From Thermoproteus sp. (GTDB taxonomy: Archaea; Thermoproteota; Thermoprotei; Thermoproteales; Thermoproteaceae), in assembly GCA_049976425.1 (NCBI GenBank), contig JBMFIG010000001.1, positions 1 through 32,000 of the forward strand: a DNA stretch of 32,000 nucleotides, given 5' to 3'. Below the pieces are notes generated by a model, which searched no databases, was not told where the DNA came from, and saw nothing but the letters and a program-made list of their open reading frames with translations. A program made the position numbers and the translations under genes. Numbering within the stretch: the first letter of the stretch is position 1; each line of letters opens with the position of its first letter. Positions 6,426 through 11,908 of this stretch are shown here, in pieces.

Positions 6426-7088
6426 TTATAGGTATACGTACTCCATCCAGTCCAGTTGCGGAAGGGCGGACACCAGTCCGCTTATTATGCGCCGGTACAG
6501 GGTCTCCGTTTCGACGACCTTAGCCCTTGCCGACGTTGTGCTTCCGACCACCCTCACAAACGCTCTGTACCTCTCCCCGGAGACCCGGCGGGCTGTGATG
6601 GAGATCTCCTCCACTGCGGGGGGCAGAGGGAACGGGGGAGGCCTCTTGGCCACGTATTGAGGAGGTATGGGGCTGGCCCTCGCCATTATCTTGCCTATTC
6701 CCTGGGCCGGACGCCTCTGGCGGCCTCTACGGCCGACTACGTGTATCAGCGAGGGGCGAGATTTCAGCGCCAGCAGGTATAACAACGTGGTGTAGTCCAG
6801 CGCCTTGTGCAGAGCCTGTACCGACTCCAGCTTTATCTCCCTGGCGTCGATCTCCAACGAGAGCCTCCTACATCCATTCAATTCCCTTGATATAAACTCC
6901 ATCAAGTTCTCGTAGAGGGCGACCGCGTCGTACAACACGACGACCTTTCCGTAGTCGTTGAAGGCCAGGCCGTAGGGCTCTACTCTGGCCACGACGTAGT
7001 TGTCGCCCCTATAGACGCCCACCTCGCCGAGGTCCGAGACCACGAAAACGCCGCAGTTCTCCTGCATCGCCTCAATCCTTTCCCGCAA
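6426..7088 (-). CDS. hypothetical protein tightly linked to arcadin-4 (arcade-cluster associated). Two globular parts joined by an Arg/Pro-rich linker. Start is either TTG 7088 or ATG 7067
   Basis: 220-aa ORF co-oriented with arcadin-4. TTG 7088 overlaps the arcadin-4 stop (7072-7074) by 17 nt. The alternative ATG 7067 lies 4 nt after that stop. Linker reads GRRGRQRRPAQG...PIPPQYVAKRPPPFPLPP. I recognise no family. Confidence 0.6.
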   Translation of the reverse strand: MRERIEAMQENCGVFVVSDLGEVGVYRGDNYVVARVEPYGLAFNDYGKVVVLYDAVALYENLMEFISRELNGCRRLSLEIDAREIKLESVQALHKALDYTTLLYLLALKSRPSLIHVVGRRGRQRRPAQGIGKIMARASPIPPQYVAKRPPPFPLPPAVEEISITARRVSGERYRAFVRVVGSTTSARAKVVETETLYRRIISGLVSALPQLDWMEYVYL

Positions 7089-9471
7089 ATATATCTTTAG
7101 TCGTTGCTTCAGGTCTTCCCGAGCTACGCAAGAGCTCTATGACCCTCACGTCGACTCCATTGGCCGCTATCTCTCTGGGCAGATCGCCGGTCTGCGTCGC
7201 CACCACTATCTGGTACTCAGAGCTGAGCGACGCGATGAGGCCCGCCAGCGACGATCTGACGTTGGGATCCACATAGGGCAGAGGGTCGTCGAGCAGGAGG
7301 AAGCCCAGCTTGGGACCCAACAGCCTGCGCATGGATATCACGAGCGAGAGAGCCGCCGCCAGCCTCTGCCCGTCGCTGAGCTTGGAGATACCCACGACGT
7401 TTCCGTCGGCTAGCCTAGCCTCAACCTCATACGCCTTGTCCCTCAGCGTCAGCCTCAACGACTCGATATCCCTATACGGGTATATCTTCGAGAAGTTCCT
7501 CCACAGCTCGTCCTCTATCTCCTTAATTATCCTAGATCTAACATTATATTTTAATATATCTATTTTATTTGTTATATTAGAGAATCTATTATATGCATAC
7601 ATATACTTCTCCAGCTTAGATCTCAAGGAGTCGAGCTCCTCGTCTACGCTAGCCAGAACCTCCGAGAGCCTTCTCAGCTCGTCGTATACGTCCGCCTTCC
7701 TCCTCCTCGTCCTGTCAAGCTCCTCGGAGATCCTCCGGAACTCCTCCTCGGCCTCCAGAGCCGCGCCGCTTAGGCCTAAGTTCTTGAGCTCCCTCTCCAA
7801 GCCCTCCAGCTCCTCGCGGAGCTGCCTTATCCTAAGAGCCTTGTTGTACCTCCTGACCACCTCCTCTATGGCTTCCGGAGTCACGTCGTTTAGGAAGCCC
7901 GCCAACAGCTCGAGGCGGCGCGAGATCTGGGACGACGACTTGGCGGCTTGGTCCAACCTCGCCTTGATTTTCTCCTCCTCGCCGGCCAGCCTCTCCAGCT
8001 CCTCCCTGGCTTTAAGATACTCCGAGACGGGCCCGAGCAACGACGCCATCTCCTTGTAGGCGCTCTCCAGGGCCTCCAACTCCTCCCTGGCCTTCTCCAG
8101 CTGCTCGAGCTCCTGCGAGTACTCCCTCTCTATATCCTTCAATCTGCTGGACGCGACATCCCTATCCAACTTGCCGCCGCATACGGGACACCTCTCGGCG
8201 CCTGTCTCCAAAACGTACAGGAGGATGTACCTCAACGACGAGGCGTAGTTGGCCCTTCTCTCAAGCTCCTTGACCTTCTCCCTCATCTCGTCTAGCTTTA
8301 TCTTGATCTCTTCGGGGGGCCCGTAGCGCGCCGAGATCTCCTTGAACCTCTTGTAGGCCTCCCCGAGCTGGTCGACCCTCGCCCTAAGCCTCGAGATCTC
8401 CGCCCGTATCTCGTCCAGTTTAGCCGCCAGAGACTTCCTCTGGGCCTCGGCCGCCGAGAGGGCCTCCTCAAGAGAGCTCTTGACCTTGGCGAGCTCCCTA
8501 TACGCCTCTTGGAGGAGCTCCGCCAGTTTGGCCGCGTCGGGCTCCCGCGATATCCTCTCTATCATCTGCGGATCTATCATGTGCTCGAACTCCGACATGA
8601 CGCCGACAAACCTATCCCTCAACTCCTCTATCTGTCCCAGCTCCGAGGCGTAGGAGTAGCCGGACTCCTCGAGCAACTCCAGCTCCGACTTGGCCCTATA
8701 ATAGGCGTTTATCTTGTCCTGGAGACTCGACAGCTTGTCCACATATCTACGCCTCTCCTCCAAGAGCTCCCTATATCTCGACGAGAGGTCGGCCTCCCGC
8801 CGCGTGAGGCCCTCAAGCTCCCTCTCGAGCGACGCCTTGACCTCCTTCAACTTAGACAGACCTCCATACTTCTCTATTATATCCCTATATTTCTCGTAAT
8901 ATGATATTTTTATTCTAATTTTTTCTATTTCTTTCATTATATTTTTTAATATATTATTTATTATTTTCTGAGTGTTATCTAATATATCGATCTGAAGTAT
9001 TTTATCTATCAGCGAGGTTCTCTTAAGCCTATCGCCGTGGATGAAGTCCTCGAGCGCGTAGTGGGATATATAGATCACCCTGTCGTAGTCGTCGCTCGTT
9101 ATCCCGGTCAGCTCGGCGAGCGCTCTCTCGGCGTCTTCGTCGGTATATCTGCGGTCGTCCAGCCTAAGCTCTAGGCGGCTCCGGCCTCCCCTCCCCACCG
9201 ACCGCCTCACCAGGGCTTTTCTGGACCCGTCGGTCAGCTCCAGCTCCACCAAGGCGCTGTCGGAGTTGAGGTTGATCAAGTCCGCGAGCCTCGCTATCCT
9301 CTGCCTGACCTCCAGTTCCTTTCCGAATAGGGCGAACTCAACCGCCTGCAACAACGAGGATTTGCCGGCGCCGACTCTGCCGACGATGGCCGTCACCGGC
9401 GATAGCCGGAATTCGTACTCGCCTTCGTAGACCTTGAAGTCCCTTAGCTTAATCCTCGCGATCCTCCACAT
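7072..9471 (-). CDS. rkd-4: arcadin-4, Rad50/SMC-like coiled-coil ATPase
   Basis: 799 aa. Walker A GRVGAGKSSLLQAVEFALFG, ABC signature LSDGQRLAAALSL, Walker B FLLLDDPL. Long heptad-rich E/L/R/K middle with a central ERCPVCGGK motif. Position within the crenactin operon. Confidence 0.85.
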   Translation of the reverse strand: MWRIARIKLRDFKVYEGEYEFRLSPVTAIVGRVGAGKSSLLQAVEFALFGKELEVRQRIARLADLINLNSDSALVELELTDGSRKALVRRSVGRGGRSRLELRLDDRRYTDEDAERALAELTGITSDDYDRVIYISHYALEDFIHGDRLKRTSLIDKILQIDILDNTQKIINNILKNIMKEIEKIRIKISYYEKYRDIIEKYGGLSKLKEVKASLERELEGLTRREADLSSRYRELLEERRRYVDKLSSLQDKINAYYRAKSELELLEESGYSYASELGQIEELRDRFVGVMSEFEHMIDPQMIERISREPDAAKLAELLQEAYRELAKVKSSLEEALSAAEAQRKSLAAKLDEIRAEISRLRARVDQLGEAYKRFKEISARYGPPEEIKIKLDEMREKVKELERRANYASSLRYILLYVLETGAERCPVCGGKLDRDVASSRLKDIEREYSQELEQLEKAREELEALESAYKEMASLLGPVSEYLKAREELERLAGEEEKIKARLDQAAKSSSQISRRLELLAGFLNDVTPEAIEEVVRRYNKALRIRQLREELEGLERELKNLGLSGAALEAEEEFRRISEELDRTRRRKADVYDELRRLSEVLASVDEELDSLRSKLEKYMYAYNRFSNITNKIDILKYNVRSRIIKEIEDELWRNFSKIYPYRDIESLRLTLRDKAYEVEARLADGNVVGISKLSDGQRLAAALSLVISMRRLLGPKLGFLLLDDPLPYVDPNVRSSLAGLIASLSSEYQIVVATQTGDLPREIAANGVDVRVIELLRSSGRPEATTKDIFAGKD

Positions 9472-9625
9472 AGATCCCCCACTGCGAGAGGATTTCCTTC
9501 ACCTTCCCCCTGGCCCCCTTAGGGCCCGAGGATCTATACGCCCTGATTATATCCATTACTATATCTATGTCCGAGCCCTCCAAGATCTTCCTTGCCTCCT
9601 CCTCGATTATCTTGAAAATATCCAC
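9449..9625 (-). CDS. small helical protein (58 aa) between arcadin-2 and arcadin-4; candidate arcadin-3 by position
   Basis: Hand translation from GTG 9625: VDIFKIIEEEARKILEGSDIDIVMDIIRAYRSSGPKGARGKVKEILSQWGIYVEDRED, stop TAA at 9449-9451. Below the 60-aa cutoff of the ORF track. Its 3' end overlaps the arcadin-4 start by 23 nt. TAAATATAAA (9643-9652) sits ~22 nt upstream. Confidence 0.45.
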   Translation of the reverse strand: MDIFKIIEEEARKILEGSDIDIVMDIIRAYRSSGPKGARGKVKEILSQWGIYVEDRED

Positions 9626-11563: not shown

Positions 11564-11572
11564 GTCGAGAAC

Positions 11573-11908
11573 TCAGCTGGGCCTTATTTTAATTATTCCT
11601 TGATCGATCTCTATATCGACGCTGTCGCCTACGTCGACGTCTCCAAGCGACTCCGCCTCATCGTCGGTGAGCCAGATGGTGAGGCGCGGCACGGCTATCT
11701 TGTTAAGGGAGAAGGGGAGGGATCTGATTATCTGGGACACCAGCGGCATTATCTCCCTCGCCACCGGAGCCGTCTGCTCGTCTGACGGCGCCATCACTAG
11801 AGGGCCCGGCACATCCTTTTCCTCCACGACGTCTATCTTCACGTAACGGGTGCCTGTGGGATCCGCGACCAGCTGTTTGCTTACTACTACGCCCTTTACC
11901 ACGACCAC
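11573..11908 (-). CDS. rkd-1: arcadin-1
   Basis: 111-aa ORF (GTG start) ending 9 nt upstream of the crenactin start. Own TATA-like TTTAATTA ~22 nt upstream. Assignment is by conserved position in the arcade cluster. Confidence 0.7.

Follow-up and report, generated by a model that had tools for sequence, protein, structure and literature searches.

The arcade cytoskeleton cluster of a Thermoproteus species and the conserved gene that follows arcadin-4

Introduction

How many genes belong to the crenactin cytoskeleton cluster of Thermoproteus, and is the gene that follows arcadin-4 one of them? The arcade cluster was reportedly defined by Ettema et al. in 2011 as crenactin plus arcadins 1 to 4. 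Herein, we analyzed a stretch of 32,000 nucleotides (nt) of Thermoproteus sp. DNA (contig JBMFIG010000001.1, positions 1–32,000; hereafter the window), in which six co-oriented open reading frames (ORFs) occupy positions 6426–11908 of the minus strand. A preliminary description of the locus had read them as a complete arcade operon with more components than the five named ones. We conclude, with a probability of about 80%, that the locus is the canonical arcade cluster of this Thermoproteus species and that the sixth ORF (ORF6) is a lineage-specific neighbor, dispensable for core arcade function. Thermoproteales possess neither FtsZ nor ESCRT-III, and their division and rod shape are thought to use crenactin and the arcadins (PMC7613921).

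Results

Five of the six ORFs are crenactin and arcadins 1 to 4

Recomputing the ORF table returned all six minus-strand ORFs where the preliminary description had placed them, and the coordinates reproduced its junction lengths, namely a 9-nt gap between arcadin-1 and crenactin followed by a 14-nt overlap, a 29-nt gap and a 23-nt overlap as far as arcadin-4. The last junction, between arcadin-4 and ORF6, is a 17-nt overlap if ORF6 starts at TTG 7088 and a 4-nt gap if it starts at ATG 7067. Five of the six ORFs matched curated family models with E values from 1e-17 to 1e-281, so the arrangement is far from chance. They are crenactin and arcadins 1 to 4, co-oriented and in the published order, which is also the order in 12 Pyrobaculum-type loci (L007–L018), and the cluster is complete as proposed. 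Misassignment of a named gene was considered and rejected, since curated models and solved structures fit the five. The earlier suspicion that at least one ORF was unnamed or misassigned therefore held in its first part only: ORF6 lies outside the named set, and none of the five is misassigned.

The product of 435 amino acids (aa), an actin-fold protein said to resemble Pyrobaculum calidifontis crenactin, scored 724.7 bits against the NCBIfam equivalog NF053560 (cutoff 630) and matched PDB entries 4CJ7 (P. calidifontis), 5LY3 and 5MW1 with an E value of 1.9e-227 across residues 2–429, confirming the resemblance. It did not fit ParM, MreB or Hsp70-type families better: the next actin-like NCBIfam model, MamK, reached only 47.7 bits, and Pfam Actin gave 33.4 bits (vs 27). 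The phosphate-1 (D17 and G19 in DFGTS), phosphate-2 (E182, G184, H185, G186 and N187) and adenosine (S353, G354 and G355) motifs are present as described and are invariant in an alignment of 16 diverse crenactins. The crenactin of Thermoproteus sp. CP80 is 96% identical to that of the window, and those of Pyrobaculum are 74–78% identical (tblastn). P. calidifontis crenactin shows ATP-dependent polymerization into double filaments that resemble F-actin (PMC5173319), and by analogy with this orthologue the protein encoded here would play the same role. Arcadin-1 matched Pfam PF18653 (Arcadin_1; E 2e-43, 147.4 bits vs a gathering threshold of 25) and the solved arcadin-1 structure PDB 5LY5 (E 7.3e-42, residues 2–110). 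Going by published work on its Pyrobaculum orthologue, it would be an oligomeric, weak binder of crenactin.

Arcadin-2, immediately 3' of crenactin, scored 298.3 bits against NCBIfam NF053561 (Rkd2; cutoff 290). The final residues of this 204-aa protein form the basic amphipathic tail that had been noted, and its C-terminus carries the motif DN[EP]W[VIL]..L, which is found from Thermoproteus through Culexarchaeia-type loci and aligns with DNEWVRILRS of Pyrobaculum. Binding of the peptide at the C-terminus of arcadin-2 to crenactin, which the preliminary description mentioned, is documented for P. calidifontis, where 17 residues (187–203) bind the hydrophobic groove of crenactin with nanomolar affinity and filaments are depolymerized (PMC5173319). 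The motif is intact here, and by analogy the helix would fill the crenactin groove, sequestering monomers and dismantling filaments. Like actin sequesterers of the thymosin beta4/cofilin type, arcadin-2 places a short amphipathic helix in the groove of an actin fold and disassembles filaments (PMC5173319); unlike homologues, however, these proteins have no sequence relation to arcadin-2, and convergence has been proposed by the authors of that study.

An arcadin-2-like ORF follows crenactin in 75 of 81 loci, and the two genes appear to be a conserved core pair. Both also occur in metagenome-assembled genomes (MAGs) labelled Thermofilaceae, Bathyarchaeia, Nitrososphaeria, Caldarchaeales, Culexarchaeia and Methanomethylicota. 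The limitation of the arcade to Thermoproteales and Korarchaeota, taken as established in the preliminary description, is thus outdated; a wider distribution of crenactin has also been remarked in the Culexarchaeia paper. In the loci outside Thermoproteales (L039–L083), whose MAG labels include the last five of these names, the arcadin-2-like ORF behind crenactin carries a DNPW..L C-terminal motif, and a 94-aa Cys-rich ORF or a 258-aa metallo-beta-lactamase-like ORF stands in place of arcadin-3 and arcadin-4.

Profile searches of each ORF against the crenactin and arcadin models assigned all five named genes, arcadin-3 below its cutoff. Arcadin-3 matched Rkd3 (NF053562) end to end (residues 1–58 vs 1–56, E 1.1e-17), and in 32 loci the small ORF immediately ahead of arcadin-4 falls in the same cluster. 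The assignment was kept because of this clustering and the position of the gene, which overlaps arcadin-4. Arcadin-4 scored 935.2 bits against NCBIfam NF053563 (Rkd4; cutoff 860). It carries a Walker A motif (GRVGAGKS, aa 31–38), a CPVC zinc hook (aa 428–431), an SDGQ signature (at aa 699) and a Walker B motif (FLLLDD, aa 724–729), and these head and hook motifs, together with weaker matches to Rad50/SMC models, agree with the reading of the 799-aa ORF as Rad50/SMC-like.

Arcadin-4 thus shares Walker A, a long coiled coil, a CxxC hook, signature and Walker B with the ATPases of Rad50-Mre11, SbcCD and SMC-ScpAB, and like them it lies between small genes that are candidate partners (arcadin-3 and ORF6). 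It differs in scoring 95 bits against Rad50/SMC equivalogs whose cutoffs are 700–1087 bits, and no Mre11/SbcD nuclease or kleisin was detectable. Neither arcadin-3 nor the ORF6 family matched the Rad50/SMC partner families credibly. The overlap of 23 nt, with no promoter-like element between the two genes, is consistent with a coupled pair in which a small acidic protein would work with a Rad50/SMC-like zinc-hook coiled-coil ATPase.

Two side observations concern arcadin-4. Its Walker B motif, FLLLDDP at aa 724–730, has Asp for the usual catalytic Glu in every Thermoproteus arcadin-4 examined, whereas DEP is found in almost every other lineage, the ORF6-bearing L019 clade among them; judging from the residue change, ATP hydrolysis may be slower in Thermoproteus. 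Two AT-rich patches, where the local GC fraction dips to 0.54 in the composition profile, encode Ile/Lys/Asn-rich segments (approximately aa 168–192 and 631–645) at both ends of the coiled coil.

Compared with the arcade of P. calidifontis, the window has the same five genes in the same order and orientation. The arcadin-2 groove-binding helix, the arcadin-3/arcadin-4 overlap, the TATA-like box before arcadin-3 and the downstream TrmB(-) and tetraether synthase (Tes) genes are also common to it and Pyrobaculum. The window differs by one more gene, of 213 aa, between arcadin-4 and TrmB, by Alba directly upstream, by DD instead of DE in the Walker B motif of arcadin-4, and by an added TATA-like run before arcadin-2. 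Thermoproteus tenax Kra 1 (L001, FN869859.1) has the entire row of Alba, arcadin-1, crenactin, arcadin-2, arcadin-3, arcadin-4, TTX_0756, TrmB(-) and Tes, and its TTX_0756 is 61% identical to ORF6. The differences are a very AT-rich spacer of 132 nt before the ORF6 homologue, against a 4-nt gap in the window, and arcadins 2–4 that are only 55% identical. The core of five genes is orthologous to the published arcade, and T. tenax Kra 1 already has the layout with six genes in unannotated form.

ORF6 is a genuine gene of a tiny orphan family

Homologues of ORF6 are 211–218 aa long in a word-indexed search and 211–227 aa when members from the profile search are included, and those of Thermoproteus begin at the residue matching M8 of the 220-aa version. 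This favors ATG 7067 as the start, with 213 aa and the 4-nt gap. The ratio of nonsynonymous to synonymous substitution rates (dN/dS) against five Thermoproteus orthologues was 0.08–0.16, with dS saturated, similar to the values for arcadin-2 and arcadin-4. Twenty residues, with the two Cys C5 and C66 among them, are invariant in the extended family. AlphaFold2 predicted a two-domain alpha/beta protein (predicted local distance difference test score (pLDDT) 87.3, predicted template modelling score (pTM) 0.86), with lower pLDDT in a flexible RRGRQRR loop. With an isoelectric point of 9.5, ORF6 is basic, in contrast to the acidic arcadin-1, crenactin, arcadin-3 and arcadin-4 (4.4–5.7).

The word-indexed search of 5.8 billion proteins returned nine clusters, all of Thermoproteus type and including TTX_0756 of T. 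tenax. A profile search added one cluster, P0130, which is 24% identical, giving a total of 10 clusters in the same proteins. Exhaustive HMMER searching of 1.84 billion representatives gave three matches, with P0131 (E 2.4e-23) as the sole addition. Neither ORF6, P0130 and P0131 nor any other member of the family alignment had a credible Pfam, NCBIfam or PHROG family, and the ORF6 profile against PDB sequences gave nothing but a chance gp120 match. Foldseek returned no match at E ≤ 0.001, either for the full model against PDB and BFVD or for the N-domain model against PDB. Full-text literature searches found no paper for 'arcadin-5' or TTX_0756 and none naming a sixth arcade component.

Several assignments were tried and rejected. 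For the full model, the best Foldseek match against PDB had an E value of 6.9e-3 and a template modelling (TM) score of 0.16, with scattered hot-dog/TsaB matches. The N-domain model reached an E value of 0.45 at best, with weak matches to FtsA, MreB, hexokinase and actin (TM about 0.2). Neither the hot-dog nor the ASKHA matches were counted as evidence. A degenerate actin fold received a probability of 0.4% from hhalign against the crenactin profile. The proline-rich segment RPPPFPLPP is not kept in P0130 or P0131 and was dropped as a conserved ligand motif.

ORF6 is a genuine gene. If it were a spurious frame, or the 3' region of arcadin-4 extended by misannotation, its want of a database family and the overlap of its first candidate start, TTG 7088, with arcadin-4 would be accounted for. 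The low dN/dS, the full-length and size-conserved homologues with 20 invariant residues at identities down to 24–28%, the confident predicted model and a reading frame that differs from that of arcadin-4 effectively refute this explanation, to which we give almost no credence.

ORF6 is restricted to Thermoproteus and a deeper clade of Thermoproteaceae

Synteny was assessed in 80 crenactin loci from GTDB species genomes, onto which all six proteins were mapped. Arcadins 1 to 4 are syntenic with crenactin, in agreement with the preliminary description, which would have been undermined by a lack of such synteny among the flanking ORFs. ORF6 was found only in Thermoproteus (L001, L004, L005, L006, L016, L088 and L089) and in a deeper Thermoproteaceae clade (L019, L035 and L086). 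In all 11 Thermoproteus and deep-clade contigs with the upstream side visible, it is the next gene 3' of arcadin-4 and has the same orientation, and in 10 of them the two genes overlap by up to 8 nt or are separated by up to about 26 nt.

Behind arcadin-4, ORF6 is absent in Pyrobaculum, Vulcanisaeta-type and Thermofilaceae loci and in the other arcade-bearing lineages; Caldivirga-type loci showed no arcadin-4 behind which to look for it. Among the 12 Pyrobaculum-type loci, 10 have this region visible and unrearranged, including L007–L009, L012–L015, L017 and L018, and there the immediate neighbor of arcadin-4 is a convergent gene for a TrmB-like regulator, behind which comes Tes, a radical-SAM tetraether synthase. 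The same two genes stand behind ORF6 in Thermoproteus and L086. Judging from their sequences, the gene after arcadin-4 is DapA-like in Vulcanisaeta, an aIF2-gamma-like GTPase in another clade, and a KaiC/RecA-like ATPase in Thermofilaceae. We rejected these genes of Vulcanisaeta, other Thermoproteales and Thermofilaceae as diverged forms of ORF6, since the ORF6 hidden Markov model misses all of them and their sequences are of the DapA, aIF2-gamma and KaiC/RecA kinds.

In a neighbor-joining tree of crenactin plus arcadin-4, the ORF6-bearing L019/L035 clade falls outside Thermoproteus and Pyrobaculum. The simplest history suggested by these sequences is one gain and one loss. ORF6 would have been gained once, at the base of Thermoproteaceae and between the converging genes for arcadin-4 and TrmB, kept in Thermoproteus and one deeper clade, and lost once in Pyrobaculum. 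As the arcade was defined in Pyrobaculum, such a loss would explain a count of six genes here against five there.

Tes and the TrmB-like gene, the latter convergent with the arcade cluster, lie directly downstream of it in Thermoproteus, Pyrobaculum and the L019/L035/L086 clade; in the window, the 574-aa Tes scored 633 bits against NCBIfam NF045702 (cutoff 450). In those lineages, then, an enzyme of membrane lipids keeps stable synteny with a cell-shape cluster. In Thermoproteus sp. CP80 (L004, 15271–17064), two minus-strand ORFs of 203 and 391 aa lie between the ORF6 homologue and TrmB, and the arcadin-4/ORF6 junction is intact.

Most genes of the cluster are preceded by TATA-like elements

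AT-rich runs were defined as at least 7 of 8 bases on the gene strand, of which there are 37 in 5.6 kb. Such runs are centered 20–27 nt upstream of five of the six starts (arcadin-1, crenactin, arcadin-2, arcadin-3 and ORF6, not arcadin-4), for which a binomial estimate gives a chance of about 2e-6. At the distance seen before crenactin they occur in Thermoproteus and Pyrobaculum loci too, and the run before arcadin-2 is kept in Thermoproteus and absent in Pyrobaculum. The 29-nt spacer between arcadin-2 and arcadin-3 reads TAG-CGTAAATATAAACAAGCCGCGATACGTAC-GTG and contains AAATATAAA. The internal TATA-like box reported at this place is indeed present, and its position is kept in Thermoproteus and most Pyrobaculum loci examined.

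The box before ORF6 is conserved in L004, L005, L006 and L016. T. tenax has the same GATATATATT at the same distance from its ORF6 homologue, within the 132-nt spacer, which is non-coding, so that coding constraint alone does not account for the conservation of this box. According to a passage in PMC2151090 that cites Slupska 2001, transcripts of Pyrobaculum aerophilum are leaderless. The cluster is probably a row of leaderless units with TATA-like boxes of their own, not a single operon. The units would be arcadin-1, crenactin, arcadin-2, arcadin-3 with arcadin-4, and ORF6, and we infer that arcadin-3 and arcadin-4 are the only clear bicistron. This reading refines the choice between one and two transcription units that the preliminary description had posed.

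Discussion

The decisive question is whether ORF6 belongs to the arcade. The claim of an operon with more components fared poorly: the sixth ORF is missing from Pyrobaculum, Vulcanisaeta and its relatives, Thermofilaceae and all other arcade lineages, it has a TATA-like box of its own, and its homologue P0131 has no adjoining arcadin-4 on its short contigs. Moreover, the adjacency of ORF6 and arcadin-4 lies inside a larger collinear block from Alba to Tes and is by itself no proof of arcade function. We therefore lean slightly towards ORF6 being a plain syntenic neighbor, dispensable and lineage-specific, over its being an accessory partner of the arcadin-3/4 module.

The main competitor is that ORF6 is a sixth arcade component ('arcadin-5'), predicted to be a basic adaptor for the acidic arcadin-3/arcadin-4 module or for crenactin, which we regard as possible though distinctly less probable. 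Its further elaboration, equally tentative, is that the protein has a new fold, would tether its partners to DNA, filaments or another cellular target, for example through the Arg-rich loop, and is ancestral to Thermoproteaceae and lost in Pyrobaculum. ORF6 always sits directly 3' of arcadin-4 on the same strand, at a location retained down to 24% identity, under purifying selection as strong as that on arcadin-2 and arcadin-4; it is basic and arcadin-1, crenactin, arcadin-3 and arcadin-4 are acidic, the RRGRQRR loop is predicted with lower pLDDT, and the insertion in L004 separates ORF6 from TrmB and not from arcadin-4. However, Pyrobaculum does without it, and nothing in its other five genes visibly makes up for the absence; every other arcade-bearing lineage lacks it too. 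The adjacency is not specific to the arcade, since these genomes keep TrmB and Tes in synteny just as well. The separate TATA-like box, the long T. tenax spacer and the position of the remote homologue P0131, away from arcadin-4, also count against this reading.

P0131 also raises the rather improbable reading that ORF6 came from a mobile genetic element and was domesticated, or parked, between convergent genes, with a role in DNA transactions and not in the cytoskeleton; this overlaps with ORF6 being a plain syntenic neighbor. On two contigs, linked to runs SRR14241346 and SRR24907187, this sole outside relative (222 aa; L084 1006–1674 and L085 1006–1674) has a divergent serine resolvase (PF00239) on one side and a winged helix-turn-helix gene of the BlaI/Penicillinase_R type on the other. 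An orphan family of very narrow distribution, a basic protein and a gap between convergent 3' ends as a permissive insertion point would all suit such an origin. Yet ORF6 and P0131 matched no phage record (tblastn) and no PHROG family, the ORF6 model matched no BFVD structure, a search of IMG/VR found no relatives, no repeats or integrase lie beside ORF6 in the window, its composition is like that of neighboring genes, and identity ranks and the tree indicate vertical inheritance congruent with crenactin and arcadin-4. A search of metagenome and viral contigs found no longer contigs with P0131.

Some points weigh against our reading of the locus as the canonical arcade with a dispensable neighbor and separately promoted genes. 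The same-strand 4-nt junction of ORF6 with arcadin-4 is tight, and the position is kept down to 24% protein identity. Such persistent tight junctions usually signal a functional link, and going by this arrangement ORF6 could be a true accessory component of the arcade. The two independent P0131 contigs are only 2–2.5 kb long, and the crenactin and arcadin-4 tree is a neighbor-joining tree without support values. Arcadin-3 reached 63.8 bits, less than the curated NCBIfam cutoff of 90. All statements on promoters and operons are deduced from the DNA sequence; three of the TATA-like runs lie within coding sequence, two runs are beside stop codons, and these elements may owe something to base composition and to constraints on the coding sequence.

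On balance, the Thermoproteus cluster has one extra conserved gene outside the Pyrobaculum-based definition of the arcade and is no new system. ORF6 offers a cheap and well-defined candidate partner of arcadin-4. If it is an arcade protein, studies based on Pyrobaculum have overlooked one part of the only actin-based machinery for division and shape that is known in archaea without FtsZ and ESCRT; if it is unrelated, the locus is simply another orthologue of a known cluster. Separately promoted leaderless genes, if that is what they are, would matter for stoichiometry and for the design of genetic experiments.

Feature coordinates and minor observations

The features of the window are collected in Table 1.

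Table 1. Positions of the arcade genes, TATA-like elements and adjoining features in the window
Feature	Position	Strand	Remarks
Arcadin-1	11573–11908	-	111 aa, GTG start; Pfam PF18653
Crenactin	10256–11563	-	435 aa, GTG start; NCBIfam NF053560
Arcadin-2	9655–10269	-	204 aa, GTG start; 14-nt overlap with crenactin; NCBIfam NF053561 Rkd2
Arcadin-2 C-terminal helix (putative crenactin groove-binding peptide)	9658–9708	-	Residues 188–204; conserved motif
Arcadin-3	9449–9625	-	58 aa, GTG start; 23-nt overlap with arcadin-4; NCBIfam NF053562 Rkd3
Arcadin-4	7072–9471	-	799 aa, Rad50/SMC-like coiled-coil ATPase; NCBIfam NF053563 Rkd4
Sixth ORF (ORF6, TTX_0756-family orphan)	6426–7067	-	213 aa from ATG 7067; 220 aa (6426–7088) from TTG 7088
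TATA-like box TTAAGTTTAATTACA	11926–11940	-	Center about 24 nt upstream of arcadin-1 GTG; conserved as TAAGTTTAATTAC in Thermoproteus loci
TATA-like run AATAATTAAAATAA	11584–11597	-	Inside arcadin-1 3' end, center about 27 nt upstream of crenactin GTG
TATA-like run ACAATATAAATAAAGA	10287–10302	-	Inside crenactin 3' end, center about 25 nt upstream of arcadin-2 GTG
TATA-like box TAAATATAAACAA	9640–9652	-	Arcadin-2/arcadin-3 spacer, about 20–25 nt upstream of arcadin-3 GTG
TATA-like box TAAAGATATATTT	7087–7099	-	Inside arcadin-4 3' end, center about 26 nt upstream of ORF6 ATG
Arcadin-4 Walker B motif FLLLDDP	7282–7302		
Arcadin-4 AT-rich patches	8897–8969 and 7539–7581		
Tes	3822–5546	-	574-aa radical-SAM protein; NCBIfam NF045702
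TrmB-like regulator	5601–6317	+	
GC-rich hairpin GGCGGGC-N15-GCCCGCC	11961–11989		Within 11945–12006

In the deep Thermoproteaceae clade and in loci of the Vulcanisaeta type (L019 9662–9943, L035 9660–9941, L020 9589–9978, L025 9648–9980, L036 9642–9983 and others), the ORF immediately 5' of crenactin, on its own strand, belongs to an unnamed family with lengths of 93–129 aa. This family shares the motif R.F..C...VV.DNG..Y and is absent from the window; in the loci that have it, arcadin-1 is inverted and lies 1–3 kb upstream. The family is a candidate for another unnamed member of the cluster.

An Rfam scan of the whole window gave no matches. A GC-rich hairpin lies in the interval bounded by the T-run behind the Alba stop codon on one side and the TATA-like box of arcadin-1 on the other; it is near-identical in T. 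tenax and three other Thermoproteus loci and absent in AZ2. Its RNA fold has a predicted energy of -27.5 kcal/mol (z -2.3).

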